From: Fimicolochytrium jonesii
Taxonomy: Eukaryota
Reading direction: 5' to 3'
DNA length: 64,000 nt
NCBI RefSeq assembly: GCF_025526975.1
Contig: NW_026515668.1
Coordinates: 1,054,001-1,118,000 of the forward strand
The first letter of the stretch is position 1. Each line of letters opens with the position of its first letter. Under the pieces are notes generated by a model. The model was not told the origin of the DNA. It was given only the letters and a program-made list of their open reading frames with translations, and did not search any database. A program made the position numbers and the translations under genes. Below are positions 1 through 50,792 of this stretch, piece by piece.

Positions 1-1196
1 GATGACCCGAACGCAGAAGCGCTTCGCCTGTTCAATCAGCACGTGCTGTCCGACAAGCGAGTCTCAGTAGTTGTGCTTCCCATTCGCGACGGTGTGAGTG
101 TGATCACTCGGCGAAGGTTTGTTCCTTTCTGCTTTCCACCTTTAATGAGGCCTGCGTAACTCGTCTTATGCCCTTCCTCTTAGCAGTCAGCAACCCGATG
201 CATCGAGCGATTCCGTCATTTTAGGCGAAGGAGGACTTGACATACTTCAACGACTAAAACTTTCGGACAAAGTATCCCTTGTGACTGGTGCGGGGCAGGG
301 AATTGGAAGGGCATTCGCGCATGCGCTGGGCGAGGCTGGTGCGGCCGTCGCTGTGGTCGATATAGCGAAAGTCAAGGCAGAAGTGGTGGCGAAAGAGTTG
401 AAGGCTAAGGGCATTAGGAGCATAGCTGTTGGAGCCGATGTTACGAAGAAATCAGATTGTGTTCGGTGAGCAATGACGTATTGCATCCCATCGATGTTCC
501 TGACACTAATGTCCAATGTTCCAGAATGGTCGAAGAAACTCTCACTGCGTGGGGCCACCTGGATATTGCGGTGAATAACGCCGGAGTGAACTTCAACGGT
601 GCTGCGGAAGACATTACCGATATTCAGTGGGATACAACGTTCAATGTCAACACGAAGGGCGTGCTCTACTGCTGCCAGGTCCGCGCTGCCTCCTCAATAT
701 TGGCAAAATTGGTATGGTGCTGACTCAAGATGTTCCGACAGGCTGAGGCGAGATACATGCTACAAAGTCAGCGACCTTGCTCCATCATCAACACCGCGAG
801 CATGGCCACTCTTCTTGTGCCGCACCCGCAGAAACAGGCGGCATATAATAGCAGTAAAGCTGCCGTTGTTAAATTGACGCAAAGCCTTGCGGTCGAATGG
901 GCTGACCGAGGCGTACGAGTAAACGCTATCAGTCCTGGAATCGTAAACACTGCTCTGATCCAGGTTGGTAGTAGCATTGGAGCGCTTCACGTCGTAGATG
1001 TGCTGACGACAAATATCCGGAACAGGAAAACCCAGATCTCAAGCCTCTCGTGAAGACTTGGCTGGGCCAAATCCCGCTGAATCGCCTTGCTGAGGTTACA
1101 GATCTGCAGGCGGCCGTAGTGTATTTGGCCTCGGATGCAAGCTCGTATCTAACTGGGCAGAACTTAGGCATTGAGGGAGGACAAAGTGTGATCTAA
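1..1196 (+). CDS. O-methyltransferase / short-chain dehydrogenase fusion (MT-Ox-like, gadusol-pathway type); 5' partial
   Basis: Frame 1 from base 1 reads [38 protein letters not shown], a CCoAOMT/MysB-type O-MT C-terminus. A GT-AG intron (117-183) joins it in frame, with no stop, to an SDR domain: [29 protein letters not shown] catalytic YxxxK, RVNAISPG, and the end [15 protein letters not shown] at 1196. Further introns at about 466-524, 679-741 and 964-1025. Confidence 0.85.
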
Positions 1197-1999
1197 GCTC
1201 TGAAGTATATTGCCTAGATGCTCATGCAATCCCCATCTTGGTTCCTGGCATTGCAGTTTTCATGCTCGGATATTGAGGAAACACTTCCATTTAGCCCGCT
1301 GCAGCGCGCCATCATGGGAGAATCCTTGCTCTCAATCAACAGGGTTCATTTGACAGGTCCCAAAGACGACGCGCTGTCGATTTCTCTCACGGTTTCGATT
1401 TTCCGCTATTATTTTCCAATGACGTTCAGATATCCCGTTGTGCCGAACCTGACGTCCACCTTGCGTATTCGTATATAACGGAAGCAGATTCTCTTTGTTT
1501 TCCTGCCGCGCGCGCGGCGTCAGCAAAAGTATCCCGAAGCATGAGTATCATTTGACACAGAGTGTCAAATATATGGCGCCTTCGGTATTTGGGCGGTCAA
1601 CCAGTGGGGTAGCGGCGTAGGCTGTGAGGATCTCTCTGAGTTATCGTCGCTCGGTATGGCGTACGTTTGCCCCAAGTGAGAATGAAGTAACGTTTATAGC
1701 TATATCCCCTCATTTTCGGTATTCGACAGCTTACAACATGGACGACAACGTGACAAGTCTACCGCCTTCGTCATTAGGATGTCACACCCGACGGCTATAG
1801 GCGAAGGTGAACGAAGATGTGCGGAGAGGGAAGCAGGAGAATGCGACTTTGATGGGAGCTTTTCCGCTCCGATGCCATGGCATGGATCCTTGACGAGGGG
1901 GATATAGGATTGGGCATGTTCGAGCGCCCCGGCGTGTGAGCAAACAGCAGCCGTTCCCGAAGTCCATGCACAGGCCGATTGCCTTTTTTAAAGCGAATC

Positions 2000-3489
2000 A
2001 TGGGGCCCCTCAAGGAACAAACCACGCTGTCCACGAAGCTTTGGACTGTCATACAAACGATATCGGTGCTGGTTCTTCTGCAATGCGTCTTACTGCCCAT
2101 CAACCTTTGGATCTGTTCGACGACCGACGTGTTTCGCGTTTTCGCATCCCCGATCCGCCGCTCCAAGTTCCGTTCTCATGACTTCGCTTCTCCCCAGAAG
2201 ACGGTTCTCATTGACGGGGGCCGACTTTCCAAGGGGCTCCTACTCGCCCGGCTTTGCAAACAAGCAGGCTACCGTGTGATCTACACCGCCACGCCGCAAA
2301 CATGCTTTTCGGGTGCCCGGTTTTCCCGAGCCGTCGACAGATTCTACGTGATCCCCAATCGAGCAAACGATGATTACGTAGCGTGCGAAAAGGATGTGAT
2401 GAAGATTATGCGCAGGGAAAAGGTCGACGTTTACATGCCGGTCAGCACAGCTAGCTCGGCGGTCGGGGATAGCAACATCGCGGACAGTGTCCGGAGGGCT
2501 GGGCATCGGGCTGTAGCGTTGGGAAGTGCGGATGCACAAAGGTTGGACGATAAGCACCTGTTCGGGCAATGGGCGAAGGAGGTTGGGTGTGATGTGCCGG
2601 TAAGGAAGCGGAATCATGTTTCGATGAGTCGTTTCATTTTGACTGATCGGAACATCAGGAATCGCATCAAGTCACATCTCCCCGAGATATGCTCGTCACT
2701 CTCGCGAAGCTCTCGTCCGGCAGCACTGAACCCTCGCGCTTCCAACTCAAGAGCATTCAATACGATGACACGCATCGCACGGAGACCGTCTGCTCGTCAG
2801 AGGTGTCCAAGCCTGAAGTGCAAGCTAGAGTTCTGTCGTTGCCCATCAGCAGAAGCACACCGTATCTCATCCAGCGCCACATCAGTGGCAAAGAGTACTG
2901 CACCCATGTGCTTGCGCTCTCCGGGGATGTATTGGCTTTGGCGATATGCCCCTCATCGCCCTGGCTGTTGCAGTACAAGCATGTGGAGCACGCGGGCATT
3001 AGCGCATGGGTGAAGCGGTTCGTGCGCAACACGGGATTGAGTGGGCATGCCTGCTTCGATTTCATTGTTGAGGACGGGACTGAAATCGTGTATGCGATTG
3101 AGTGCAATCCCCGGGTTTCAACCGCCATCGCTTGTTTCAGGGGTTCTGAGCAGTATGGCAAGGCATTGGACCATTTCCTCGATAACCCGAAGGCGGAAGA
3201 ACATTCGGCTGACGCAAGCACGATCACACCGCATCATTCTATGGTAGCCCAGCACTGGCTATACCATGAACTGCTGTATGAGTTGCCCCGAACATTCTGG
3301 TCGCCAACAGCTGCGCTCAATCGCATCCTCTTCATCGTAAAGAATGAGGACGCTTTGTATGATTTCGATGATCCATGGCCGTTCTTTGCTCAAAATCATT
3401 TGCTAATCCCACAGCAGTTGCTGTGGCATCTCTGGCATCTGAGGCCGTGGACCCACATAGATTACAACCTCGGTCGCCTGATCGATTGA
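2000..3489 (+). CDS. mysC: ATP-grasp amino-acid ligase, MysC (mycosporine-glycine synthase) family
   Basis: Two exons (intron 2600-2658). Motifs match cyanobacterial MysC as recalled: LLPINL, KTVLIDGGRLSKGLLLAR, RFSRAVDRFYVIP, LDDK, LKSIQYD, GKEYCTH, FDFI..DG..YAIECNPR, WLYHEL, DDPWPF, WTHIDYNLGRL. Confidence 0.88.
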
Positions 3490-3967
3490 TGAACTGCGCA
3501 TTGTAGCGTGTAAATATCTTCTACAATTACATCTACTGTGACATTTGCCAAAGACGAATTATGTGCGGTTCCAGAAGCCCCACTTGCACATGTACATGTA
3601 GATGCCCGCGATGCGTACGCCGTACTTTCAAGTTGTGTAGCACAGGAAGGCTGGAGCAGGCTTCTTAGAGAGTACGGCATGTTATAACTGCAGCTCATGC
3701 CGAGCTTCTCCGGTGGGTGCCGCTTTCATTGCGGCTCGTCTCTTGTAGTTCGTCGGCAGTAGCTCACGCAAATCGTCAGCTACCACCATCGGAGAGGTGT
3801 GCCTAGCCGAGATCGTGACAACGAGAGATTTTCAATCGTCAGATCCATGAAGGCCAGCGGCTGTGACCATAACCATCTTGACCGTGTTCATGATGGAGAA
3901 GACGTGAGGCAATCCGTGGGAGGTCTGGAGTTCAGCAATAGCATTTTCCTGTTATCCGGAATGAAGT

Positions 3968-5986
3968 TTATCCGGAATGAAGTACGGAGTGCGCCTAGGA
4001 AATAGGAGCGATGAGTCAGCAGTCGGAGTTGTCGAGCATCGTCCAATATAGAGATCCCTCACCTGCACGCATCCCAGCGAACAATACCGATACATGAACT
4101 TCTCAAACGGCGTGCAGTTCGACAATGACTTGCCACAAGCCGCACACTGATTCATCCGTCCCCTAATCCGAGCCTCAGCCGCCAACGCCCTCTTTTCCCG
4201 ATCAAGCGCCATCCGCTGCTCCGGTGTCAGCCCAATCATTTCCCGTTCGGTTTTGTTCAGTTTCGCCAAGAGCGGTCTCCCACTGGAGGAGGACTTCTGC
4301 GGTTCGGGCTCGGGCTCGGACGCCGATTCCTTCTTTGCCGCGTTGTATGCCTTCTGCTTTTCTTTTGCTTTCTTCTTTTTCTCCTTTTCCTTTTCCTTTT
4401 GTTGCTGTTCCATTTCGGGTGTCAAGGGACCGGGTACGTGAGCTTCTTTCCAGTCCCACCGCTCGGGCTCTTTTGCCATGTGGCGACGGAATGCATCACG
4501 CGTTTCCTTCGAACTTGCTGCATCGTATGGCCTTAGACTCTTTTTTTCCGCAGCTTTGGTTGGGTCGGCACCAAGGTCGAGAAGGAACGCGACAAGCTCA
4601 GGATGGTTGTTGCTCGACGCGATGTACAAGAAGCTGGTCCCTGCAGAATCAGGCAGAACCGCGTTGATATCGAACGTCGGTTTCGATTGCAAGAACCCCT
4701 GTACAACCTCGATTTTGCCTCGTTTGCACAAGTCGGCGAGCTTAACCAGCTCGGGGTCCAGCGCCGGCTCCTCCGCTTTCGGCTCCGACGTCGCCTGAAG
4801 CGCTGGCGAAGACCTTCCTGAGACGGGAGCTTTTGGCTTTGGCGGAGCTAGCGTTGCGGGTTCAACCTCTTTGATATCCTCGATAGTCACCGTGGACAGC
4901 TCCTTGAAACATCTCATCAACTCTCCATGCGTCGGACGTCGGGTGGTGAATGGGAAGGATCGGATCCTTTCATCGGCACTACTCAATGGGCTATCCTCGA
5001 AGAACAGAGTCCGCCTATTCTGAACGGATGAGCGGATGAAAATCAGCTCGCTGCCTTCAATTTCGCTTCTCCATTGAAGCAACAGATCGTGGATGTCATC
5101 CTGGAAATGCCAACCCATTGTCAGCGGTCCCGCCACGCGAAAGTACGGCTCAGATCATTACGTACCTTCAGAGCCTGTTCATTGTATCGACGGAGCATGG
5201 CTCCCGCACTTTTGGCGGAACCTTTCGCGCTGTCGTTCCTAAACCAAGCGTTAGGCATGATTCCCCATCACGACGCACACTCATCCGCAACACATACTTG
5301 CTCTGGGCTCCTCCTTGCTTTCTCCTCGTCGTATACCGATGGAAAGTTTTCTGCACCACAGACTTTCCCGACGCGCAATCGATAACCGTCCCCGCAAAGT
5401 GCCCCGCTCCCAACATGAGTAGCGTCCAATGCGTCTTTCTCATATCCCCATCATGAAGCTTCTTGACCACGGAGGCGCGGTCCAGTCCAGCAAACCTCTT
5501 TTCGCCCGACACAATCTGCCTAAAGAGCCTCAGCGCCTTTTTATTATCCGGCAATGGAAGCAGGATATACGGCGAGCCTCGTTCTATCTGTCGTCCCGAC
5601 GCCTTACGAGATGCGGTATCATCGTCATCACTCTCGCTGTCGGAGTCGCTCGCATCGATACTGCTGACTTCCTCAATCTCCTCAAACTCGGCCTCTGAAA
5701 CAGGAGAGCGACCGGCGACCTTTCGCTGGAGGTTATATCTATGCCAGTCTGCTTTGTAATGTTGGCGCATATCATCGCTGGATGTGAAGGTGACCCCGCA
5801 GGTACTACATGACGTCTGGGTCCCGATCGGATTGTTTTCGGCAACGCTCTTTTCCACTGGCCGGGCCGTCTCTTGTGCTGCCTCGACCTGGACGCTGGAG
5901 CTGATGGCATCTACCACGGTCGGTAGGAGTTGCTGAAACTGCTTGCCGAACAAACTTAGAACTTCTGGCTGTCCTCTGACCACCAT
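3968..5986 (-). CDS. VMS1: Vms1/ANKZF1 ribosome quality-control tRNA-releasing factor
   Basis: C2H2 finger CSTC...HYKADWHRYNLQRK; VLRF1 motifs GHFAG and KTFHRYTTRRKQGGAQS; ankyrin repeats; coiled coil; C-terminal CxxC...YCSLGC treble clef. Spliced from ORFs 5168..5986 and 3952..5136. Confidence 0.9.
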
Positions 5987-6570
5987 TTTACTAGTCAGCT
6001 AGGAAATAACTAATCAGAGGACGCTGCAGGGGAACGGGAGAGGTAGGTAGAAGTAGAAGTACGGCAGCGACGGTGTTTTTGAAGTGCTTTCCGCAATGAC
6101 AGCAGGCTCAAATGGACCGGTTATCCTCTGTATTGCCCTCGCGACGGACCCGCGTCTGCCGAATGTGAGCGCTGAGGTTATCCTGACCCAACATGGGAAC
6201 CCGAATCCTCCGAATCCGCACTTCGATACACGCCTGCCTATAACGACGTGAAAGACGGGCCAGATGCCACTGATCTTCGATGGTGATAAATCGAGTTCGT
6301 AGGTATCAGGATGCGCTCCAAGTGCGATGATTGATGACGAAGTAGATCTCGGACGTTCTCCAATCCTTCCAATCCTCCCGGGTTGGAACCCAACACTCGA
6401 AATTTCGACCCACAAGTTGTATTCTTCTCTTTCGACATGAACTCTCATGCATAGATCTTAAGACCCACGACCAGTAACGCTACGCTCCTGTTGCAGCTGG
6501 GTCATCCTAGACTCCCCTAGGTCTAATCCTGTCTTTGTATATGTACAAGCTCATGAAGTTCTCCTTGCTC

Positions 6571-6978
6571 TCACTCCATCTTGGTCTTCCCAAACCACCC
6601 GACCATCCAAATCCCTTGAGCTATCAATGTCCAGCATCCACTGAGGGGCTGCACAAGTGCTCCAATCACGCCCACACCCAAAGTTCCCCATGCTACCCCT
6701 CTCGGGACATATCCCGCAACGTTGATATTCTCCCTTATAGAAATCCCCAAAAGTATCATCGCTGCGCCGGCGAGCTCGAACCACCAGGCTGCCATACGAT
6801 CGTATTGCGGTGCGCCGCTCGAGGTGGGGTCCAGACTTATGCCGGTTATCGAGTCGAAGAGGCCCGAGCGTACCATGGAGAGGAGGGGTGGTCCTAGTCG
6901 AGGATGGGTGAGACCGACTAGGATGTGGGTTACACCAGTTAGGACGAGGGTTGCACCGGGGTTGATGGAGGATGGCAT
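6571..6978 (-). CDS. small intronless multi-pass membrane protein, DUF6463-like
   Basis: 135 aa with about four hydrophobic segments. Motifs GVTHILVG, AAWWFELAG..MILLG and QPLSGCW resemble a mostly bacterial DUF family (from memory). Confidence 0.5.
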   Translation of the reverse strand: MPSSINPGATLVLTGVTHILVGLTHPRLGPPLLSMVRSGLFDSITGISLDPTSSGAPQYDRMAAWWFELAGAAMILLGISIRENINVAGYVPRGVAWGTLGVGVIGALVQPLSGCWTLIAQGIWMVGWFGKTKME

Positions 6979-7541
6979 TTTGTGCTGGTTTATACGTTGT
7001 CAGGTTTGTTGATGTGAGCGATAATTATTGACTGTATACCAATGCTCTGAAGTGGATGCTATCCCCTTTTATATGCAACGCGTCCGGTTTCCGACGCGGA
7101 AATTGACGGAAGCGGAGGCATCGGAGGCGGAAGGCTCTTTTAGGGACATGCATGGAGACCCGGGCAAAACGGAACGGAAAGGAGGAGTCTATGTGCAAAG
7201 AGGATGTGCTTGAGTTCCTAGGCTCGGGTAGTCACGGCTACGACAGCGCCTCCCGCCGTCTTACCTTACTGCTCCCGCCCTCATTCCTGGTCGGATGGGC
7301 AGTCAAGAAATTTGGTCGTTTACGCTTCTGCCACTAACTATACGGCGAGTTTGTTCTTTGAGTTTACGCAAACGGAAGGATCTTTTGCAAGAACGAAGCA
7401 TGCGCATGGTGTATTGAATTAGTGAACTGAAAGAATCGTCTCCGAGGGTATATATGTACATGAAGGGTCAAAAAATCCGTTACGCCGTATGCCGAAGCAC
7501 CTATCTTAGATACGCCGGTTGAAAGTACTCCCGACATATAG

Positions 7542-7997
7542 CTACCGCGTCGCAGCCAGATTCGGCGTCGAATAACTTGGCGGGGTATCCATGTACACCG
7601 TCGCCGCGCTCTCCAACGTCGCCGTCCTCGGCATTTCTCGCCACAGATCCCACATCCGGCCCGATCCTATTCCCGGGGAATCCGGCCCCACATTCCGAAA
7701 CGTGCTTGTCGACGGCCTCGACTGCTCCACATCAACTCCCACCACTAACTGCTCATGCTCCAAATCGTTGTACACAATTTCAACCGGTTTAGTGGTCGTT
7801 ACTTTAGGCCGGAAGAATAATTGGCGCGCTGGTTCGGCCATTCGATACCCAACCCATCCTAGGAATACAACGGCTAGTATGCCGACGATGACGAATACGT
7901 ATTGGACTGGCATTTGGTTGCTTTTGAGGGCTATTTGGTTCGAAGAAGAGTCGGGTGTGCTTGGGGAGGGAGAGGGCGAGGAGGAGCTTTGGTCCAT
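7542..7997 (-). CDS. hypothetical single-pass membrane protein
   Basis: 151-aa ATG ORF with an S/P-rich N-terminus, one TM segment (YVFVIVGILAVVFLGWVGY) and a C-terminal PPSY motif. Confidence 0.55.
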   Translation of the reverse strand: MDQSSSSPSPSPSTPDSSSNQIALKSNQMPVQYVFVIVGILAVVFLGWVGYRMAEPARQLFFRPKVTTTKPVEIVYNDLEHEQLVVGVDVEQSRPSTSTFRNVGPDSPGIGSGRMWDLWREMPRTATLESAATVYMDTPPSYSTPNLAATR

Positions 7998-9871
7998 AAT
8001 TGCCGAGTGATTGGTGTGTGATACGGTGATACGCAGAGGTGAAGGCGAGACGATAGTTGTCGGCAGGCTTTTGCGTGCGTTATACCAAGTTCGTCGTCGG
8101 GAGTCCCTTTGTTCACCCAGCCGCTAACAGGAACTTGAGGTAATTCCAGAGGAGCTTCCGAATTCGACGTGTGTCACTTGTAGCTCTACGCTCCGTAAGA
8201 CTATTTGATATCTACGACCTTGAGAGCAGACGGACGGTCGTTCGAACGAATGGCTGCGAAACTGCCGAGCTGGAGGGAGTCTTGAATGCAGGAGGTTATG
8301 TGAGACACGGCAGGAGGGAGTTGTGGCTGGCTCGCCCCTATGTATTGTATTTTTTGCGCAACATTTGAGCGCGGTGACGAACGCAGAATTCGACAAGCGC
8401 TGGGCGATCACTTCCGCCAACAGGGCCCACCATCTCGCGTTTCTTTTTGTCCCCATAGAAAAAAAAAGTTGTATCGGGACGGCAACGAAAACGTGAGCGC
8501 CGTAGGTTTTTGCATTCCGCTGGGATGGACAATATTCCAACCGCCTTTTTTCCACCTTCGCAGTTGGGGACGCTAGAGAAGGCATCGAAGCGGGATGCCA
8601 GTGGTTTGGCTCTTTGATACCGTTGGGCCCAGCGTTGGGCCGGGCTTGACGTGACCGACGCGCGGTAGAGCTGCAGACATGGCGGGCTTACATTACGTCG
8701 ATGACAACTTTCATGAAGTGTAGAAGTCCTGCATAGGAAGAACTGTAAAAACCCACTTTTACATACGTATACTGGGCTACCATTTGCACACTTAACCGGT
8801 TCCCGTGACCAAATATCTCGTCATTAGCGAAACCTGTTTGTCGCGCGCGCTGGAGCAGCGGAGAAGCTGGCTACAGTTTGGGTTCGATATAAGGACCAGG
8901 CATACGAACCCGGCCAGAGCTTCACGCAAATAATGAGGAACTCCTTCACCAAGCCCGAGAGGATTGCTTCTGAGGTGGTGGGGCATCAAGTGAGTGGTGG
9001 AGCGAAGGCAAATCGGAACAACGGGCTCAATGGACGAAGGGCTTGATGGACAAGGAGGCGGAAAGAGACATCGGTTCCATACCTGCCGCAATGAGCAAGC
9101 ATGGGCAAGCTTTATCCCTCATCTGACATAGACAATGGTATTGCAGGGAAGCCACAGCAAATCCTGGCGACAAATCTTTGTTCCTGGCGGGGAACTGGTC
9201 TCTTCGCTTTCCAAACTGGCCTGCATTGATGCCAATGTCATGCTCACGTACGGTCGTATCGTGGTTGTAGCGCACTTTGGCAGAAGGTATTACTATCAGT
9301 CCAATCCGACACTGAGCAAACACCAACCTCCTGAAGATGAAGAGAGTGAGAGTCATATTATTTTCATGCCCTCGCCCTCAACGCCTGACATGTACCCTAG
9401 ATTCTGTATCTCGACGACTTTATTGGGTACGATCTAAGATCTAGTAAGATTGATGAGGTGACGTTGCGATGTTTCAGCCTGTCAGATAGTAAAGATACTG
9501 TCTCCACCTCCCTTTCATACTCGATGAGTCCTTCATCCCACATAGAGGACTCATGAGTCTTTTCATCGCCGTCGTTAAATATATCTTGGCATGCAGATCT
9601 GTGCAGTGCAGTCGGGGGCCGAAGATCCAATGTGGGGGTGGTTGTGCAGGGTCGCGCGCAATTGACAGGCGGCCTGAGGTGCTGTCAGTTTCAGTTATGC
9701 GTGCAAAATCACAGGCAAAATCATAACGAAAATGCGCGCATCGAGATAAACAACCCCCTTGCAATCGGCGGACCTCCCTACGTAGACAAACCATGGTATA
9801 TTCCCCACTCTGACTTGCTCTATCCAACGGCCTGGAACCGCTCTTGCCTCTCGCTTCACCGCCCAGCAAGT

Positions 9872-11761
9872 ATGGGCTTTGGGTTCTTCAAGTCGAAGAA
9901 GGACGCCACCGGCGGTGGCAACAGGAGCAGCAGCAGCAGCAGCAACCGCCGGACCCGCTCACCATCCCCACTGAGTTTTTCCACTCCGGCTACCAGAGGA
10001 GGGTTTGGACATAAATACCCCGCAGCTCCCGGGTCGCCCGTCGACTCGGCCTTCTCCTCGACCGGCTCGTCATCCTCAAAGTCGAATTCGTCGACGGGCT
10101 ATAGGACCCTGGATCCTAAGGCGGATTACTTTGACCTGGCTGGCGTCGGTGCCGCGTTGCCTGGTGGGGAGGGTGGGAGGGGTGTAAGCGGTCTGTCGAA
10201 AGCAACGACACTGGATGCGCCGTCGTTTCTGGACGACCTGGTCTTTGATTTTGACGGGCGGAGTGGGGTGAAAGACAAGAAGAGTCCACACACGACTCGG
10301 GAAGTGTCGTCCTCAGGCAGACAAAGGGATTTGGAACCGGTGGTGGAGGGAAATGAGGGAAGATCTCGTGGCGAGCCGCCCGCCAGGCGACGGTACTCGT
10401 TCGAGAAAGGAGACGATCTGACTGGTGAGTTTTGTCATCGTGAGTGTTCGTTCTTCATGTCTGAGAACCTTTCATATTAACGTCTTGTCCCGCTCTCAGT
10501 TACTGCCCTGGCTGACCGGGCAGTGACCACCCCGGAAGCTATCAGATCGACACGGTCAGAACCAGAGCGCCCGTCCTCTGGGTCATCAGTAACAACGAAA
10601 ACGAAAGGCCTCAAATCGAAAGCTGCTGATCTGCTCAAGATGAACACGAACCAAAATGCTCTCTCATCACACACCGTCCCAACATCAACAACTCCACAAA
10701 CTAGCAAAAGCTCCGTCACAGCACCGAAACGTCGAAAGAGCCGGCGAGATGCAGCGCGGGCGCCTTCGCAGTCCCGCAATCGTTACCAAAACGCCCATCA
10801 ATCCAGCGGAACAGAATCCGACTCTGATGACGACGTTGCGTTAGTCCGCCATGTCGTTTCCAACCCTAATATGTCCGCTGCATTCTCACGGGCAAATCTT
10901 AACGCACCGGCTGCACCACCCCAGCGACTCCGGCCTCAAGCGTCCTCGCCCAATCTACGAGGCATGGTGCAGCCGTACAACTCCTCGTCATCGTCATCAT
11001 CCCACGACCGCCACCCATCCACATCCACAATCTCTCAGTCGTCGTCAACGGCCTCGCCACCGGGCTCCCCGCGGCTAGCACCCTCTGCGTCGAACCGGTC
11101 CCTGTCAAGGACGGGCAAACACCCACTATCCCGCTCATCGTCGCGGCGCACCAACGCATCGACAAGCGACGAATCGGATGATGAGGAGGCCCCGCTCTCG
11201 AGCGTACGACACCAAGCGATCTCGGATGCCCAACAGCGGGGCAGGCGACGACGCGGAGGTGCGGCCGCGACGCCCGCGATTGTTACAGCCGGGACGGGCA
11301 GGGTTTCCACAGACTCGCAGTTTTCCGCACGGTCCAATGCGTCTTCTGCGACTTTGGCCGGCGCGTCGCCACGACGGAAGAACGGAGACCCAGGCTTGCC
11401 TCCACCGCCAATGGACAAGGTCATGCCTGCCCTCACACCTCATCTGCAACAACACGCGCATTATCCATCACCATACCCACAACAGCCACCACAACCAACA
11501 CAGTACTACCCGCAACAGCAGCTCCAACAAATGCCCGCACATGCCTCACCCTCATACACACCCCAGCAACAGGCCATGGCCGTCGCGCAACAGCAGCAGA
11601 TGTGGAACGCGTACTTCCAGCAAGCCGCTGCGATGCAACAGGCGGTGTTTGTCCAGCAACAGCAGCAGCAGCAGCAGATGCATCAGCGGGCTATGCTGGG
11701 GATCGCGACCGCGGACGGGGGTGCGGGGAAGGAGAGGAGTGGGCGGCGGGGTAGGAAATGA
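9872..11761 (+). CDS. hypothetical disordered Ser/Pro/Gln-rich protein
   Basis: Starts MGFGFFKSKK at 9872. An intron at about 10425-10499 joins it to the 412-aa ORF ending at 11761. Low complexity with poly-S and poly-Q tracts. Confidence 0.65.
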
Positions 11762-25695: not shown

Positions 25696-28600
25696 ATGCC
25701 GTCGTATATGGAAGAGGGGGAGTTGAATTTGCTGGAGCAAGGGGAAATGGCCAGACGGGTTCGGGAGTTCAACTGGGCAACTACAGGGGTTGGGCCAAGA
25801 GATAAATGGCCTGCGGTTCTAGCAACCGCTGTTAATATGATCTTGGCTATTCGTTTCCCGATCGTCATCTTCTGGGGTCCTAAATGTGAGAAGGCTTCAG
25901 CTACACTTTCGCTGCCTTGGTGCTTTGCTAATCCGATTTGTTTCCGACACCAGATGTTACGATATACAACGATGCTTGTAGGAAGCCTGTCATGCTCTTG
26001 GTCATAATACCTCTTCAATGACTGATCGAAATGCCTTCAACAAATATATAGATATTGATGTACTGGGACCGAAACACCCATGTCTGGGGCGCACTGGAGC
26101 TGATGTCTATGAGGAGTTCTGGGCACAAATCCTTCCGGTACTGTGTTTGAACACCCAAAATCGGTTGGAGGAACAGTCTAAGCTGACCTCCGGATACTAG
26201 GAATTCAAACGTGCCGAGCTGGGAGGGTCGGTGCTTCAATACGATCGCCATCTGCCGATGTTGAGACGCGGTTACCTGGAAGAGGTAAGGGGCAGATACG
26301 ACCTTCAACTGTGAGACTTGGGACTCACTTCAGATGTATCCATCAAGACCTACTTTGTGTATACCTTGTCCCCGCTTTCTGATTCGGATGGGGTGGTGCA
26401 AGGAATCATTGGGCCATCATTTGGTAGGATCTTTATGTCGTTCATTCGCGGGTATCGCCTACTGACGCCCGTGCTATCGAGCAGAGGTCACCAAAAAGGT
26501 CTTTCAGGAACGAAGAGAAGCCTGTTTGCGAGATTTGGGGTCCAAATGTGGAAAAGCGCACACTGTCAGCGATGCCGTAGGCATGGCTTCTGCGTCGCTT
26601 CAAGACGCAAAGGCCGATTTTCCATTTGCGTTGGTGTACTTGATAGAGGGAGAGGAAGATCAAGCACAGGTAGCTATCAAGGAGTCTTGCTGGCCGCGAC
26701 GTTCCATTAAAAGGTTTGACAATCCCTCCTTTGCATAGGCGGTTCTGAGAGGCAGTTCTGGGATACCAATGACGCACCATCTTGCGCCATCGGGGATACC
26801 ACTGGGAAGGAACTTCGCAGGCAGCGGCATTTGGCCTATTCGCGAGGCTATAACCTCAGGGGAAGCGTGCGAGATCTATGATCTGAATGATCCTTCGTTA
26901 CCTGGTGGCATTTGGGAAGAGACGCCTACAGAGGCGATTGTGCACCCATTGTATGGAACGCAGCTCGATATAATAGGCTGCTTGGTCATGGGATGCAACC
27001 CGCGGCGACGGCTCGACCAGGACTACCGGAACTTCTTCACGTTGGTTACTCGTCAAATCGGGGTCAACATTGCCGCTGCTCGGAATTACGAGGAGGAAAA
27101 GAAGAAGCAGGAAGCTTTAGCGGCCATTGACAGGGCAAAGACGGCCTTCTTTAGGTTCGTTCAAACCAGTCTGGCGCAATCGCGCGGCACAATGTCCTAC
27201 TGACTCCCGATTTCAGCAATGTCAGTCACGAGTTCAGAACTCCTTTGACTTTGATCTTAGGTCCGCTCGAAAAAGTCTTGCGGGAAAACGAGGACCTTCC
27301 AGTCGGAGTCCGTGAGGAACTCGGGATAGCACAGCGCAATTCGCAACGACTGTTGAAGCTGGTCACTTCGCTGTTGGACTTCTCCCGAATCGAGGCCGGT
27401 CGCATGCAGGCATCGTTTAGACCGGTGGATTTGGCAGCGTTTGTCAGCGATCTCGCAGGAGTGTTCCGGTCGGCTATTGGTCGGGCGCAATTGGAATTTC
27501 GCATGGAAGTCCCACCATCAGGACGCATTGCATACATTGACACGGATCTATTCGAAAAAGTGATTTACAACATGCTTTCGAACGCAATCAAGTGCACGCT
27601 CAGAGGCAGTATCACGGTGGGTTACAGAGAAACGGACGCGGGCCCGGAAATCACCGTCTCGGACACGGGATGTGGAATCAAATCTGAAGATTTGCCTAAG
27701 GTTTTATATCTCTTTGTTGTTGCGTGCTGAAACGTGTTCATCATACTGAACCTCATCATAGATTTTTGACCGATTCTTCCGAGCTGAAGCGACTGAAAGA
27801 CGGTCCACCGAAGGCAGTGGTATCGGACTGGCCTTGACGCAGGAATTGGTACACTTGCACGGAGGTCAAATCCGTGCGGAATCCAAAGTTGGAAGCGGGA
27901 CTTCCTTCGTGGTAACACTCCCTTGGGGCAAGTCACATCTCGCCAAGGAAAGCGTTACCGAGGTCGTGAACAGCCAGAGCGATCTTGTTACGGGCGTAAG
28001 GGATCAATTTCTGGAAGAGGCGATGGGATGGCTTGGAGACGCTTCCTCCGAAGAGAAACCGGCTACACCTGAAACGGAGGCTGAGAAGTCTGAGACTACC
28101 CACGCATACCCGGTGAGCACAGGCTCTGGGCAATCGACACCATTGTTCAGGCCTCCCAGCCTGCCACGGAAATGGACAGCAACAGGCGCGCACCACATTG
28201 CAAGCGCTTCGAAGACGTACATTCTCGTGGCCGATGACAATCGCGACATGGCCTTTTATGTGAAGAAGCTCCTGAGCCCAATCGCTCGCGTCCACGTGGT
28301 TCACGACGGGGAGCAGGCATTAGCGCGGTGTCGCCAGTATCCTCCGAGTCTCCTGCTTTCAGATGTAATGATGCCTAAAATCGACGGTCTTGAGTTGGCA
28401 AGAGCGGTTCGCGCGGACAAGTCGCTGAACTTCATCCCCGTCATTCTGCTTTCGGCTCGTGCGGGCGAGGAGGCTAAAGTAGAAGGGATGGGGACCGGAG
28501 CCGATGATTACATGTAAGTCTACTGCGCAGAGGCTGTCGAACCGAGGAACTTTTGCTGAAGATTACTCTTTTCAGGTGCAAACCCTTCTCCGCCAAAGAG

Positions 28601-31180
28601 CTGATTGCCCGAGTACGCGCTCATCTTGAGTTGGGGAGACTGAGAAAGGAGCTGTTTGAGTTTGCCAACATCTGCCCAGTGGGAATCATGCGAACAGACG
28701 CTGCAGGAGGGAATATTTTCCGCAGTACAAAGATGCAGGAACTCAGTGGAACGGCCGCGCATGATCTGTTCCTGCAGAACGTGGTACGTATCACATCCCA
28801 AGCATTCCCGCCGTCTGAGAGCCGCGTACACCATAATGATACCGATTCGCACATGTAGCATCCGGATGATATCCAATACGTAATGGAAAGCTGGGATGAA
28901 TGCCGACGGCAAAAGGACCCAGGTCACATCGAATTCCGCTACCAGCATCCTGATGGTCGGGTTGTGTGTGTCCTGTCGCAATGGACGGCGGAAGTAGACG
29001 AGTCAGGCAGAGTCATAGGTAAGCCTTCACGGTGCATCTTGGTGTCGACGGGTAAAACCGGGGCAATGGATGGTCCATCTCAAACCCCTCTCTATATAAA
29101 CAGGATTCGTTGGGGCTATTACGGACATCACTGAGCGTACTCAGATGCAGCAGAAGCAGCTGAAAGAGGTCAGGGTCAAAACTCAACCGGGAGTCGACGT
29201 TTCTCTCAACTCACCTCATGGATTATCGCGTTACACGCAGGTTGAAGATGACCGAGTAGCTTTGGATCGGCTCATTGACATGATCTGCCATGAAGTGAGT
29301 TTTCTTTGGCCGCCGTCTATCTGAGTGCGGACATTAATGACAAGTTCTCCGGCAGATCCGGAATCCATTGAATGCTATCTACAACAATACAGATCTGTTG
29401 AGAACAGGGGTGCAACGACGCCGTGATATTCTCGCAAGAATCCTCTCTGGCGCCACATACAGTATAGACTCAGCCACCGATCAAGTAAGCATCAGCCAGA
29501 GAATTTTTTTTAGCTTCCGAATATCATCACTCACTCGTTGATCTAGTTTGCTTTTGACGAAGAGTGCCTCGACGCCATTGAAAGCGCTGCGCGACATCAG
29601 CGAGTCATTGCCGATGACGTGCTGCATCTATCCAAACTCAGGAACGGGCCAATGGCTATGAACAACAAGCTTTTCGACCCACTAGAGATATTGGGCAGCG
29701 TCGTTCAGATGTTCAGGGCGGAATGCGTCAACAAGGGCGTGAAGCTTGACACTGAGGTTGAATGGGAAGTTGGCCAGGTGTGGGGAGATCCCGCTCGAAT
29801 CAAGCAGATCCTCATCAAGTAAGTCCATAAATCCATATGACGTCCATATGAGGAAGACACTGGACTGCTACAGTTCTCAACGCCAGAAAGTAACACCTGT
29901 CGCGCAGCTTATTGTCGAACGCGGTGAAGTTCACGCAACACTCGGAGAAGAAGAGCATCATTCTCAGAGTCTATCAACTACAGAGTGAAGAAGGGTCCTC
30001 GCTGCGACTCGCTTTCAAGGTCATTGATACAGGTACGTCGTGCGTGGCTCGAAATACTACGTATATCAAGCCTAAACTGACTTGGACACTTAACCACTGT
30101 GTGCGTTAATAGGCATTGGGATGTCCGCCGCCGCGCAAGGGGTGAGTTGTGAAGCGATTGTCCACTGAAAATGCCAAGTTTATTTGATAAAAATACTCAA
30201 TGGTTTTGCTTTACAGAAACTTTTCAAACGCTTTTCCCAAGTTGGCCTTCGGACGCATCAAGATTATGGAGGCAGCGGTTTGGGCCTTCATATTTCTAGG
30301 TGAGGATTGCAAGCCAGATACGGATTTTGTGAAGAGCTGTCATTACAAGTGCTGATCCTTCCGTCTTTGGCAGGCAAATGATCCAAGTGATGGGTGGAGA
30401 AATCGGGGTAGAATCCGAGCTGGGCAAAGGAACAACATTCTGGTTCTACGTCTGTGTGGAGTTAGACCAGAAAGAAGACCTCGGAAGCGATCACGGTGAC
30501 AGCGTAGGGTCGTCCATAACTGCGAAGCAACCCCCGAACGGGATGGATCTGAGCAAAACCAAAACGGACGCGCCCGTGGAAGCTGTCAACGGTCTCTCGC
30601 CGACTAAGGAAAGCGACCGTGGCACGCCGATTTGCGTGCTTGTAGTGGAAGACAACCTGATCAACCAGCGAGTCATCAAACGCCAACTCGAGCTTGCGGG
30701 ATACAAGACTTATTTGGCGAACGACGGCTCGGAAGCCGTGATGTTAGTGAACTTACATCGGGAAGAAATTGATGTCATCCTGATGGATGTCGAAATGCCA
30801 AGTAAGTGATGGTTTTGGTGGGATGCAACGCGAGCAGATCGTGTGAACACCTGCTGACATATCTCTCTTCAGTTATGGACGGCATAGAAGCCACCCGCCG
30901 CATCCGACAAAGCGAGTCGCATCCCAACAGCTCGCCAAATGTCGGTGACACAGTGGGGACACAAAAGTCTGATGGCGAAGAATTCGCGAAAAACGAGCTA
31001 TGCCCGTCATCGCTTCCGATTCTAGGTCTGAGTGGCAATGCGCGCACGGAGCATCGCGACGTAGCGGTTCGTGCCGGCATGAACGATTACGTTGTGAAAC
31101 CGTACGAGAAAGCGTCACTCTTCAAGCTGATAACATCGTATGCGACCAAGCGAAGAGAGAATAGAGAGTTGTGGACATGA
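25696..31180 (+). CDS. dual-transmitter hybrid histidine kinase (PAS/GAF-HisKA-HATPase-REC-PAS-HisKA-HATPase-REC)
   Basis: H-box 1 SNVSHEFRTPL, N-box NMLSNAIK, G-boxes DTGCGI and GSGIGL; REC1 LSDVMMPKIDG. H-box 2 MICHE|IRNPLN, then LSNAVKFT and GGSGLGL; REC2 EDNLINQ...LMDVEMP. Many short introns. Confidence 0.9.
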
Positions 31181-40643: not shown

Positions 40644-40849
40644 TGCACCGCCGCAAATGTTGTAGGGCGAATAAGGCTGTGAAAAGAAGGTTAAGTGAAA
40701 TACAGTGAACGGGGGTCGGTGTCAGCCCTACAGACTTGGTCTGAAATGAAACCGAGTCGGACACCGCAATGGCCTTACCTGAGCAAATTGCGTTGCAGTA
40801 AGGAGCTCAGTATACTGTTGGTGGTTTTCCGAGTAAGACTTGAGCGGAA

Positions 40850-43800
40850 ATGTCCAGAAGGGGAGGAAGAAGGGCATCGGCTGCCCCCAGCTCCGCCAGT
40901 TCAAGACGCGAAGGGCCTTCACGCGAAGTCGAAGACGACGTTGCGCAGGACGCAGCATTGGTGGCAGCCCAGGACCCGCAGAATGCGGAAGTACCAGGGA
41001 CTGTCGGAGAGGCAGCGCAAGGCGCTTCTGTCGCGGAAAGTACAGGGTCGACTGAAGCGCGATCGCAACCCGACCTTGCTTCGGATGGTTCGGGCCCATT
41101 AGCGACGACGACATCATTCAGCGTCATAGCACCGACAGATGCGCCCGCTGTGGGGGCGGACACCTCGCAGGAAAGCTTGGCGAAAGATGTAGATCCCTCA
41201 GCGAACCCCGAAGCAGCGCTCTCACCTGCTGCCGCTCCGAGTGCGCTTGTCACAGAACCAACGCCGACGCAGCCAGAGACTGACAAGCCCGAGGTCGACG
41301 ACTTGCCGGGAGCTGAGGACAAACGACACCATGATAGCCTGTATCTAGCGATGGAGTTGGAGTATGATGAAACATGGCAAGACATTGCAGATATGAGTTC
41401 GTTGGGTCCTTTCCGATCAGAGTACGAGAAAATGCACCGAGCGGTGCTCAAATCGCGAAGCAATATCGAGAAGATGTATGGCCAATACGAAACATCGTAT
41501 CGGGAGTACTGTGTCAACCTGGTGCAGACGCAAGAGGCGAAAGAATCTTCCATACAAGATCAGCATATGATTAAGTCACTTCGCACACAGATCACAAAAG
41601 CGGAGGAGACGGTGGAGGCGAGCATGAAACTGGAGGAGTCCTTCAAGGAAGAGTTGCGGCAGCTGAAGATCGAAGTTGGCAATCTGAACGCAACTATGCA
41701 GCAAGGGGTGGGACTCAGTGCCACCCAAGAAAAGACGCTTCAGGAGCTCATACAAGCGAAAGAGCAGTCCACCAAGGAATTGGAAGAGGAGCTCGAGAAG
41801 ATCGTCCACCTGCGGAATAGCATAGCCGATGTCTCCGAACGAATCAAAATGGCAGACCAGCAAAAGCGCGAACTCGAACGCGAGATCTACGAACTTCGTG
41901 ACAGGAGCGCATCGAAGAAAGCTGAAATCGATGCCGAGCTTCGGATAAAAGAGAAACTGGAACGAGATTTGCGCGAGTTGCGGGTGGTTGTCGGTGTGAA
42001 GTTGCAGGAAGTGAGGGGAAAGCAAGACGCGGTAAACCGTGCCACGGATGATATTACCATAATCGAGTCTCAAATCCGAACTCAGAGGCAGATGACCGAG
42101 AAGCTGGTCAAAGATGAAGAAGCGCTGAACATCCGAATGGACGCGTTGCAGATCGAAGCGAACGAGCAGATGGAGCTCACATCGGATTTGATGGAGCAGA
42201 ATGTCTTGATGGCGAGCGAGCTGCGGCGGCGGGAAGGCCAGTTGGAGAAGAACCTGAGCGAGGTCAGGAAAGTGGCCAAAATCAAGGACGCGCTAGTGAA
42301 GAAGCTGCAAGCCTGTGAGGAGCAAAAACTGGAAGCCGAGCTTGAGCGTAAAGACATTCGGTTGGAATGCGAAGGGAAACTCGACACTATCGAGGCCACC
42401 AAGCGTCAAATCGACGTGCACAAGAAAGCAATGGACGATTTGACGAGAGAGCGAGACTTGATTGAGAATAACTTCCACAAGGCGCAATCCGAGCTCAATG
42501 CTCACGAGCGCATGATCCTGCTCTGCAAGCAGACTCGGCATAACATCGAGCTTGACATTGCACGCTACAATCGCGAATGCACCGATCAGACAAAGACCAT
42601 CAAAATGCTACAAGCAGAGCGGGATGGGTACATTGCAGAGTCCATCAAACTGCAAACTGCATGCGTTGCGGGCTTCCAGGAAATTAAGAGCAAGGAGGTG
42701 GAGCTCTTCGATTACAAAAAGCGCACGAGCCAGGCAGACACGAAGCTCAAACACCAGCAGAACTTGTACGAGGCTGTGCAGAGCGATAGAAACCTGCACA
42801 GCAAACATCTTATTGAAGCACAGGCAGAGATAGCCAAAATGAAGCGGAGGTTGAAAATTATGAATTTCCAAATCAACGGCTTCAAAGAAGATATCAACTC
42901 GAAACAGCAGGCTCTCACCGCCGAAGCAGCAGAGCATGCAAAGCTGCAAAAAGATATCGAGATCATATCGGAGGAGATCGCGACTTTGCAGCATCAGAAT
43001 GATCTCGGCCAGGCCTACATCCGATCACAGAGCGCCGAGGCCAACAAGCTCAACCAGTTTGTGAAGGAAGCGGAAATGGAGCGATCGCGGCAAGAAAACG
43101 CACTGAAGATTCTCGTAACGGAGCGCGACAACCTGAGCAACCAACTGATCAAACAGAACGGGGAGCTAGAGAAAGCCTATGACGCACTGAAGTTACGGCA
43201 GGCATCCCTTCTGTGCAGTGAAAGGCACTTTGCGGCGCATATTGAGAAGATCTCTGAGCTCCGCCGGGAGATATCGAGACTCAGGCGAGAAAAAGCTGGC
43301 CTGGATCTTGAATCTTCTGCTCACCTTAACACGCAGGAAACTGCCCGTCACCTCGAAACCGACCTCCTCACGCAGCAGATGCGGATCAAAGCCCTCGAAG
43401 ACCAGCTCAAACACCGCATCAACGTCCACCGCTGGCGCAAACTCGAGGGCAAAAACCCAAAAGTCTTCGATATGATCCTACTCCTGCAATCCTTGCAAAA
43501 GAAGCTTATCATGAAGTCTCAGGAGGAAAATGACAAGGAGAAGCTGATACACAGCAAAGAGATGCTGTACCTGTACCTCAAAACACTGCTTGCCAAGCAA
43601 GTCGGCCCCGAAGCCCTCGAGCAGATTTCAGAGTACCAACAGATCCTAAAAGATAAAAACATGCAGTTCAGACACATGGGCACCGAGCTGAACATGTACC
43701 AAGCGCAACTGCGAGAATATCGATACGAGATTTCCCAGTTCGACAAAACCATGCAAGTGCTCAAGTCACAATACTTGGTGGAGCATCGGGATCGAGGGAT

Positions 43801-44296
43801 GAATAACAGTCCTGTGGGGAAGAAGAAGATCAGAGCCGCGGTGGGAAGTGGGAAGTTCCCCAACGGGCCGCCTCCACCGCTTCTGCCGTCGATGGATAGG
43901 GCCGACGCCAACCGGACGCCTCCGTTGAGGAGTCGAGCGTCGGAGGTGGACGTTGCACCGGAATCGCAAACGAGCGGGCCTGAACCGATGATTGCGGAGC
44001 CGGCGGAAAGATCTCTCGCACCGACGGACGATGTCGCATATGGTCAGGCACCACTGGGCGATGACCTTGCACCGCAGGATGAACCCGCTCCGCCGCACGA
44101 TGATCCGATAGCAGAACAGGCGGAACAGGACCTCCCACTGTTTGCCTCAGAGGATGATGGGCCGAGCTCTGCTGCGAGCCCTGAGGCGCATGATTATGAG
44201 AACGATGGGGAGGCGCGGAATGCAGATACGCAGGCGTCCTCGTCGCCGGTAGTTGAGGATGACGACATTGATGCGCCAATACAGCAGCTATCCTGA
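40850..44296 (+). CDS. CFAP58: cilia- and flagella-associated protein 58-like (CCDC147)
   Basis: 1148-aa coiled-coil ORF with KLKHQQNLYEAVQSDRNLHSKHLIEAQ and NVHRWRKLEG. Confidence 0.85.
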   Translation: MSRRGGRRASAAPSSASSRREGPSREVEDDVAQDAALVAAQDPQNAEVPGTVGEAAQGASVAESTGSTEARSQPDLASDGSGPLATTTSFSVIAPTDAPAVGADTSQESLAKDVDPSANPEAALSPAAAPSALVTEPTPTQPETDKPEVDDLPGAEDKRHHDSLYLAMELEYDETWQDIADMSSLGPFRSEYEKMHRAVLKSRSNIEKMYGQYETSYREYCVNLVQTQEAKESSIQDQHMIKSLRTQITKAEETVEASMKLEESFKEELRQLKIEVGNLNATMQQGVGLSATQEKTLQELIQAKEQSTKELEEELEKIVHLRNSIADVSERIKMADQQKRELEREIYELRDRSASKKAEIDAELRIKEKLERDLRELRVVVGVKLQEVRGKQDAVNRATDDITIIESQIRTQRQMTEKLVKDEEALNIRMDALQIEANEQMELTSDLMEQNVLMASELRRREGQLEKNLSEVRKVAKIKDALVKKLQACEEQKLEAELERKDIRLECEGKLDTIEATKRQIDVHKKAMDDLTRERDLIENNFHKAQSELNAHERMILLCKQTRHNIELDIARYNRECTDQTKTIKMLQAERDGYIAESIKLQTACVAGFQEIKSKEVELFDYKKRTSQADTKLKHQQNLYEAVQSDRNLHSKHLIEAQAEIAKMKRRLKIMNFQINGFKEDINSKQQALTAEAAEHAKLQKDIEIISEEIATLQHQNDLGQAYIRSQSAEANKLNQFVKEAEMERSRQENALKILVTERDNLSNQLIKQNGELEKAYDALKLRQASLLCSERHFAAHIEKISELRREISRLRREKAGLDLESSAHLNTQETARHLETDLLTQQMRIKALEDQLKHRINVHRWRKLEGKNPKVFDMILLLQSLQKKLIMKSQEENDKEKLIHSKEMLYLYLKTLLAKQVGPEALEQISEYQQILKDKNMQFRHMGTELNMYQAQLREYRYEISQFDKTMQVLKSQYLVEHRDRGMNNSPVGKKKIRAAVGSGKFPNGPPPPLLPSMDRADANRTPPLRSRASEVDVAPESQTSGPEPMIAEPAERSLAPTDDVAYGQAPLGDDLAPQDEPAPPHDDPIAEQAEQDLPLFASEDDGPSSAASPEAHDYENDGEARNADTQASSSPVVEDDDIDAPIQQLS

Positions 44297-50371: not shown

Positions 50372-50792
50372 TGAGTGATACTTCTGGTCACCTCCCAACC
50401 CTCAGAGCGTTCGCATGCAGTCCAAATGCCGCCACCGTCAATGCGGAGATTGAGGAATGTGGCTTGGTGCGGTCGATGACTCACGCGTCTCTCTGTTGGG
50501 GCGTACCATGAGCCGAGTGGGTGGTGTGGGTGTCTGTCTCCCCCCAAAAGATGGCCCGCCCATTAACCCCTCCCTCGGAGTCCCTCATGCAAGTCCTAAT
50601 GCGTGTCTTGTGGGAAGGAAGCCGCCCGCACCAGCGGGAATTCATGCTAATAGCGACATTCTCATACGGCGCGTCGCATCAACAATCCCCCCTCCCGCAA
50701 GCCTTGCAGGGAGACCCTCGCATTACCTTCTTCAAGCCTATTGGATTCTGTCGCCCGTAGGAGTTGGAGAAGAGCCGTTCCAAAAAAGTTAT

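Follow-up and report, generated by a model that had tools for sequence, protein, structure and literature searches.

The MT-Ox gene and the gene that follows it

We analysed a stretch of 64,000 nucleotides from the chytrid fungus Fimicolochytrium jonesii (NCBI RefSeq assembly GCF_025526975.1, contig NW_026515668.1, positions 1,054,001 to 1,118,000 of the forward strand; hereafter the window). Its first 3,489 positions hold the end of a gene for MT-Ox, a protein in which an O-methyltransferase is fused to an SDR-family dehydrogenase and which acts in the vertebrate gadusol pathway, and a complete gene for an ATP-grasp enzyme related to MysC, the ligase of bacterial mycosporine clusters. A preliminary description of the window had read the two as a tandem of intron-containing genes on the same strand, about 800 bp apart, and this arrangement held in every particular: the genes are co-oriented, the gap between them is 803 bp, and both contain introns with GT..AG ends. 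Among the genes of the pathway proposed below, MT-Ox and the ligase are the only two shown to be adjacent in the window's genome. The locus is laid out as follows.

1-116, plus strand: MT-Ox exon, end of the O-methyltransferase domain (its last 38 residues, P0044 254-292); the gene begins left of the window
187-1196, plus strand: MT-Ox linker and SDR ('Ox') domain, with adh_short or adh_short_C2 matches on every exon and the exact C-terminus of P0044
1-116, 187-465, 525-678, 742-963 and 1026-1193, plus strand: MT-Ox exons, with the stop codon at 1194-1196
117-186, 466-524, 679-741 and 964-1025, plus strand: MT-Ox introns, all four with GT..AG ends
1197-1999, no strand: 803-bp spacer, which presumably contains the 3' end of MT-Ox and the promoter of the ATP-grasp gene; no family match and only short open reading frames (ORFs) on both strands
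2000-2599, plus strand: ATP-grasp exon 1, 200 amino acids, ATG at 2000, with an N-terminal hydrophobic stretch; matches PRK06849 positions 4-132 (E 3.6e-22)
2600-2658, plus strand: ATP-grasp intron, 59 bp, GT..AG
2659-3489, plus strand: ATP-grasp exon 2, 276 amino acids and stop; matches PRK06849 positions 149-381 (E 2.8e-41) and Pfam ATP-grasp_3

The window exons between 1 and 1196 translate exactly into residues 254-566 of the deposited protein P0044 (566 amino acids, 100% identity). The acceptor of the first MT-Ox intron is a tag/cag pair, which makes 184 an alternative to 187; the deposited model takes 187. The exon at 1-116 matches Pfam Methyltransf_3 at profile positions 166-203 of 204 with its first 38 amino acids (E 1e-4). 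P0044 as a whole carries PF01596 (Methyltransf_3) and PF00106/PF13561 (SDR), and the part encoded in the window gives the matching families. Because the window includes only the last 38 methyltransferase residues, the fusion architecture is established by P0044 and not by the window alone.

We aligned P0044 with its relatives in an 18-row alignment (A1) that included three fish zgc:113054 proteins, from salmon, bass and carp. Across both domains P0044 was 62-72% identical to the chytrid proteins, 52-56% to those of the named green algae and 49-51% to those of fish and Artemia. The 128 invariant columns take in the SDR motifs for NAD binding and catalysis. These motifs, the glycine-rich NAD site, NNAG, the Ser and YxxxK (here YNxSK), are intact in P0044, and none of the 18 rows departs from them. 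Relatives of P0044 included, among the chytrids and with the same length, HKX48_002138 of Thoreauomyces humboldtii and HDV00_005505 and HK097_001425 of Rhizophlyctis rosea; others came from the green algae Trebouxia, Coccomyxa, Symbiochloris, Elliptochloris and Tetradesmus, and dozens were fish zgc:113054 proteins. A 21-row tree recovered animals (100/100), chytrids (100/100) and green algae (98/96) as groups, and the chytrids were not nested within the algae. Judged by alignment, domain content and tree, gene 1 is a true full-length MT-Ox orthologue. Zebrafish zgc:113054 turns 2-epi-5-epi-valiolone into gadusol in vitro with S-adenosylmethionine (SAM) and NAD+ (PMC4426668), and the chytrid protein, as an orthologue of the zebrafish enzyme, would be expected to form gadusol as well. 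For gadusol, PMC4426668 reports an absorption maximum of 294 nm at pH 7 and m/z 203 [M-H]-.

The second gene encodes a divergent MysC-family enzyme

The complete ATP-grasp protein has 476 amino acids and is interrupted by one intron, for which 2600-2658 was the sole GT/AG pair that yielded a single 476-residue open frame (donors scanned from 2595 to 2604, acceptors from 2650 to 2664). Exon 1 was 53% identical over 135 amino acids to the R. rosea protein P0003 by tblastn, whereas the Pfam ATP-grasp_3 match on exon 2 was marginal, at 24.2 bits against a cut-off of 23.2. A protein search with exon 2, confined to proteins of 151-483 amino acids, gave 43 matches among 1932 candidates: a 266-residue fragment (68% identical), a 321-residue protein (50%) and R. 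rosea HDV00_006955 (54%) were nearest, followed by about 40 mostly bacterial proteins at 29-42%. Over 449 columns, the R. rosea orthologue is 48% identical to the window protein. The window's ATP-grasp protein itself was not among the deposited proteins matched within this length range, where the best was 68% identical, whereas its MT-Ox was found; the public annotation may lack an ATP-grasp model at 2000-3489, or its model may exceed 483 amino acids.

We scanned prokaryote genomes with A2, a 28-row MysC-family alignment headed by P0003, and obtained 79 loci, mostly from Nostocales and other cyanobacteria and from actinobacteria, that matched at 32-37% identity over approximately residues 36-481 (E 1e-67 to 4e-79). 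A MysB-type O-methyltransferase, homologous to the methyltransferase half of MT-Ox, lay directly upstream of the ATP-grasp gene in 77 of these loci, and a dehydroquinate-synthase-like cyclase was present in 74 (59 of one type, 15 of a longer type). The Chlorogloeopsis fritschii locus has the textbook order of cyclase, O-methyltransferase, ATP-grasp and NRPS. When one cyclase of each type was sampled, both scored higher against the DDGS structure 5TPR than against the EEVS structure 4P53. The window protein retains 48 of the 51 invariant and 36 of the 64 near-invariant columns of A2. A search for a solved structure of a relative gave no match with P0003, and the A2 profile returned only weak matches to carbamoyl-phosphate synthetases. 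Both its homology and the surroundings of its prokaryote relatives, 77 of 79 of which follow immediately after a gene for a MysB-type methyltransferase, place gene 2 in the MysC family, within which it is divergent. The order at the chytrid locus, methyltransferase and then ligase, mirrors the bacterial order of mysB and mysC.

The second, mostly longer DDGS-like cyclase type is an observation in its own right. Its representatives, found in 15 of the 74 cyclase-bearing prokaryote mys loci (L141 at 3827-10380, L088, L110, L111, L122, L127, L129, L134, L135, L137, L143, L146, L148, L153 and L156), share 43-57% mutual identity apart from one closer pair. In L141, the cyclase is followed by HAD- and TauD-family genes and then by mysB, mysC and mysD.

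The same genome very probably encodes an EEVS-type cyclase

Neither Pfam, applied to 100 of 108 stop-to-stop ORFs of at least 135 amino acids (the other eight overlap MT-Ox, ATP-grasp or Vms1), nor tblastn, with two cyclases from bacteria and two EEVS proteins from chytrids as queries, found a cyclase in the 64-kb window. The same Pfam scan and tblastn searches that included MysB revealed no MysD, no NRPS and no second or stand-alone O-methyltransferase in the window, which bears out the preliminary description as regards MysD and NRPS.

For a wider protein search we used as query a bacterial cyclase from a 401-genome search that scored 400 bits to ValA. The cyclases beside bacterial MysC had been dropped as EEVS queries, both types being DDGS-like, and NCBIfam offered no usable EEVS-specific model. 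A HMMER search with this query over 1.84 billion representatives listed 150 proteins, among them P0213, which is Thoreauomyces humboldtii HKX48_002137. With P0213 as query, the best other match was P0341, a Fimicolochytrium jonesii cyclase of 462 amino acids that is 65% identical to P0213. P0341 is recorded on a contig of 2,244,513 bases, and the window's P0044 is likewise recorded on a contig of 2,244,513 bases; thus the window's genome very probably encodes P0341, on the contig that carries MT-Ox and the ligase.

P0341 scored 330.8 bits to the EEVS ValA (4P53) and 224.3 bits to DDGS (5TPR), and in alignment A3 it was 47-49% identical to two bacterial EEVS-type rows compared to 31-38% for DDGS-like proteins. 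The fingerprint that separates the two enzymes is Leu267, Asp281 and His360 in EEVS (ValA numbering) and Glu, Ala and Thr in DDGS, with mutagenesis confirming positions 267 and 281 (PMC10666671). P0341 has the EEVS residues Leu267 and Asp281 in A3, with the numbering checked on the 4P53 alignment. In a quick LG+G4 tree of 41 rows rooted on DDGS, the four chytrid proteins grouped together (99) on the EEVS side, joined early-diverging ascomycetes (Saitoella, Savitreella and five more rows; 95) and, with them, stood beside the green algae (97), with fish outside. By score, sequence identity, tree position and the two residues confirmed by mutagenesis, P0341 is EEVS-type rather than DDGS-type; the residue at the third fingerprint site, taken up below, is of neither type.

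Two further observations concern the cyclases. The ascomycete proteins that group with the chytrid enzymes include the EEVS-type cyclases P0237 and P0374 of the early-diverging species Saitoella coloradoensis and Savitreella phatthalungensis. Separately, many close relatives of the bacterial EEVS are fusions with the cyclase in the C-terminal half (P0171 and about 40 other representatives, 640-770 amino acids), one of which is named by JGI as a dehydroquinate synthetase / NBD-HSP70-family sugar kinase.

Linkage of the three genes varies among chytrids

In Thoreauomyces, which belongs to the same family as Fimicolochytrium, the genes for EEVS (HKX48_002137) and MT-Ox (HKX48_002138) have consecutive locus tags on a contig of 35,375 bases. 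Of the synteny across chytrids that the preliminary description proposed to survey, this pair is present in Thoreauomyces, and linkage is not conserved in R. rosea. Altogether, EEVS, MT-Ox and the ligase co-occur in two chytrid orders, and their clustering varies.

A proposed route from gadusol to a mycosporine

These genes suggest a pathway in which EEVS, MT-Ox and the ligase act in succession, making gadusol and then, likely, attaching an amino compound to it. P0341 would cyclise sedoheptulose 7-phosphate to 2-epi-5-epi-valiolone. The SDR domain of MT-Ox would then oxidise the ring with NAD+ and its methyltransferase domain would O-methylate it with SAM, giving gadusol as predicted from the zebrafish orthologue. 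Finally, the ATP-grasp enzyme would use ATP to activate the ring enol, which would then condense with the amino group of an amino acid or amino alcohol. The predicted product is a mono-substituted, hydroxylated mycosporine with a gadusol core, and a second substitution is not expected because no MysD or NRPS lies nearby. Such a ligation has a precedent in engineered strains, in which bacterial MysC and MysD accept gadusol (Osborn and Mahmud 2019, cited in PMC7826186). The identities and arrangement of the genes are read directly from the DNA and its homologues, and from them we infer every chemical step. We hold the pathway as a whole with moderate confidence, at about an even chance.

Several results weigh against this pathway. 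At the third position of the EEVS fingerprint, His360, P0341 has Gly, which is neither the EEVS nor the DDGS residue; in A3 the site is Gly or Cys in the four chytrids, Ala or Gln in the four green-algal rows and Saitoella, and His in fish, Cyanidium and bacterial EEVS. The chytrid ligases fall short of the NCBIfam PRK06849 cut-off of 406 bits (78.9 and 141.8 for the two exons, 239.9 for P0003), which the bacterial P0019 passes with 478.1, and since their scores lie under this cut-off we regard the chytrid proteins as divergent members and not as equivalogs. In a FastTree of 119 rows they form a long-branch pair outside a group of 113 mainly bacterial MysC rows, a placement of low reliability given the long chytrid branch. 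No Thoreauomyces ATP-grasp protein turned up in the search of proteins of 151-483 amino acids. Furthermore, the R. rosea HDV00 genes lie on three contigs, with EEVS 008262 on one of 28,373 bases, MT-Ox 005505 on one of 56,759 bases and ATP-grasp 006955 on one of 40,997 bases; therefore clustering is either not required or not conserved.

The strongest alternative is that chytrids run two separate pathways, with EEVS and MT-Ox making free gadusol as in fish while the ligase draws on 4-deoxygadusol from a DDGS and O-methyltransferase of the Dikarya type, encoded elsewhere in the genome, to give an ordinary fungal mycosporine. Dikarya do use DDGS, OMT and ATPG (PMC10057719), the separation of the three genes in R. 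rosea is compatible with independent routes, and the nearest feature-based look-alikes of R. rosea P0003, the named protein most closely related to the window's ligase, in a protein atlas, which gives leads and no alignment, are two Ascomycota clusters (0.98) and one cyanobacterial cluster. However, the ligase gene stands directly behind MT-Ox in the order of mysB and mysC, and no DDGS-type chytrid protein turned up in any search, none of which was aimed at finding one. We consider two separate pathways unlikely.

Slightly less probable again is that the adjacency is an evolutionary leftover or a matter of chance, the ATP-grasp enzyme having drifted to another substrate or no longer being expressed. 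The long branch and sub-threshold NCBIfam score of the chytrid ligases, the loss of linkage in R. rosea and the window protein that went unmatched among deposited proteins, for which the annotation may lack a model in the 151-483-residue range, would all fit such decay. Against it, the gene has an intact open frame with a clean intron and retains nearly all of the family-invariant columns (48 of 51), and R. rosea has kept an orthologue at the 48% identity given above together with EEVS and MT-Ox. It is improbable that the cyclase and MT-Ox produce some other ring in place of gadusol, which the ligase then decorates: the replacement of ValA His360 by Gly or Cys in the chytrid cyclases favours this reading, but the two sites at which mutagenesis affected the product carry EEVS-type residues, the catalytic motifs of MT-Ox show no variation, and the algae that share the His360 substitution are those proposed to make natural gadusol-core compounds (PMC7826186).

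Comparison with known sunscreen systems

The closest counterpart of the proposed gadusol-to-mycosporine route is found in green algae. A neighbourhood of genes for EEVS, MT-Ox, a MysC-like ATP-grasp enzyme and an O-methyltransferase has been described in Klebsormidium nitens, Chromochloris zofingiensis and Coccomyxa subellipsoidea (Foflonker and Blaby-Haas 2020, PMC7826186), where it is called a naturally evolved hybrid and linked with prasiolin and klebsormidin A/B, natural compounds with a gadusol core. It comprises the same three enzyme families as in the chytrid, and the predicted logic is shared as well: gadusol is made first and an amino acid is then ligated to it. In the trees of EEVS and of MT-Ox, the chytrid proteins form a clade of their own next to that of the green algae and not within it. 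In contrast to the algal neighbourhood, the chytrid host is a fungus, the window has no extra O-methyltransferase, and adjacency is established for MT-Ox and the ligase only; both pathways are putative.

These algal findings revise three statements of the preliminary description. A native pathway joining gadusol to MysC, which it had regarded as new, was published as a hybrid neighbourhood for green algae in 2020, and gadusol-core mycosporines, which it knew only from engineered gene mixes, include the natural prasiolin and klebsormidin A/B (PMC7826186). Its statement that the gadusol route has no MysC is true of vertebrates only, given the MysC-like gene of Klebsormidium, Chromochloris and Coccomyxa (PMC7826186).

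The vertebrate gadusol pathway (Osborn et al. 2015, PMC4426668) uses the same two-domain MT-Ox, at about 50% full-length identity to the chytrid protein, and likewise an EEVS-type cyclase. In fish the genes for EEVS and MT-Ox are neighbours, and so they are in the chytrid relative Thoreauomyces. Next to the gadusol genes of vertebrates there is no ligase of the MysC type, whereas in the chytrid window the ligase follows directly after MT-Ox.

The mysA-mysB-mysC(-mysD/E) clusters of cyanobacteria and actinobacteria share with the chytrid locus the ligase family and the order and strand of methyltransferase and ligase. They differ in their cyclases, which are DDGS-like in both sampled types, in a MysB that lacks an SDR domain, and in their core, which is 4-deoxygadusol. 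Phaffia rhodozyma, a fungus of the Dikarya, for its part has a sunscreen cluster of three genes, DDGS-OMT-ATPG, the last of which encodes an ATP-grasp ligase (PMC10057719). Its cyclase is DDGS, its O-methyltransferase stands alone and its product is mycosporine-glutaminol with a deoxy core, whereas the chytrid has EEVS and the MT-Ox fusion. Engineered gadusporines (Osborn and Mahmud 2019, via PMC7826186 and PMC10666671) also combine gadusol genes with mysC, as an artificial mix of fish and bacterial genes, while the chytrid combination is native.

Origin of MT-Ox and of the pathway

The methyltransferase domain of MT-Ox was 33-43% identical to prokaryote MysB-type proteins over approximately residues 20-290. 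For the Ox domain, a metagenome scan with P0044 alone gave 272 pattern matches and no relatives. Scanned with alignment A1, the metagenomes yielded 561 relatives, and the best 80 of these (L001-L080) matched the SDR domain only; an MT-Ox-type methyltransferase or a MysC-like gene was present in none of these 80 loci. The stand-alone bacterial SDRs they encode were 50-59% identical to the Ox domain. In eight annotated loci (61 of 119 ORFs), the neighbours belonged to sugar or polyol catabolism and included sugar-kinase, aldolase, Gfo/Idh/MocA and ABC-transporter genes. These similarities suggest a relationship between the Ox domain and the polyol dehydrogenases of bacteria. Moreover, because the bacterial proteins nearest to it lie in sugar or polyol catabolic loci, they suggest that MT-Ox arose from a MysB-like gene that acquired a polyol-dehydrogenase domain. 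One protein, P0107, is labelled by JGI as EEV dehydrogenase / demethylgadusol O-methyltransferase, a name that the context of its close relatives (62-80% identical, e.g. L004) does not support.

Tentatively, the native chytrid EEVS/MT-Ox/MysC pathway may be an old eukaryotic inheritance held in common with green algae and derived from a bacterial operon of the mysA-B-C type, in which MysB gained the polyol-dehydrogenase domain and kept its place before mysC. We see this as a possible history, held with less confidence than the pathway itself. If it is true, fungal sunscreens would have two unrelated biosynthetic origins, one EEVS-type, in zoosporic fungi and some early ascomycetes, and one DDGS-type, in other Dikarya.

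The pathway concept has already been published for green algae (PMC7826186); the chytrids add a new lineage, with a product that is predicted. In the literature searched, we found no report of EEVS, MT-Ox or a gadusol-plus-MysC pathway in chytrids or other fungi, although two Osborn 2017 papers on cyclase distribution, outside that search, may list some. The DDGS/O-methyltransferase/ATP-grasp cluster of a basidiomycete yeast is the only fungal mycosporine route known from experiment (PMC10057719). The pairing, in chytrids, of gadusol enzymes with a ligase of the MysC type points to a second fungal sunscreen route. Since natural gadusol-core mycosporines have already been described, the known chemistry is unchanged. 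The three genes are small, with few introns where their structure is known, and would suit a test in yeast of the question raised for green algae, namely whether a native MysC takes gadusol. The chytrid genes also extend the range of organisms in which EEVS and MT-Ox are known, a point of interest for the debate on how vertebrates came by both.

Other genes of the window

The gene after the ligase, called VMS1 in the preliminary description, is indeed Vms1-like by its VLRF1, VATC and ankyrin domains. It and the other recognisable genes of the window are the following.

3955-5998, minus strand: Vms1-like gene, next after ATP-grasp and convergent with it
26739-30806, plus strand: hybrid histidine kinase with GAF, HisKA, HATPase_c and two receiver-domain matches, in several exons
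40844-44293, plus strand: flagellar protein CFAP58
50454-54581, plus strand: cobalamin-dependent methionine synthase (MetH) with homocysteine S-methyltransferase, pterin-binding, B12-binding and activation domains, in two long ORFs
55403-56473, minus strand: dihydrouridine synthase
58969-59514, minus strand: Maf1
60883-63241, minus strand: Mtr4-like helicase

The housekeeping neighbours (Vms1-like, CFAP58, dihydrouridine synthase, Maf1 and Mtr4-like) are in keeping with a zoosporic fungus and speak against a foreign island. A viral-island origin of the gene pair, considered because zoosporic fungi have giant viruses, was rejected on account of its spliceosomal introns, the even GC content (approximately 0.49-0.56 over the first 10 kb) and these same neighbours. 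The hybrid histidine kinase could be sensory, and nothing ties it to the sunscreen genes. Most fungi use a B12-independent methionine synthase; the one encoded in this window is of the cobalamin-dependent type.

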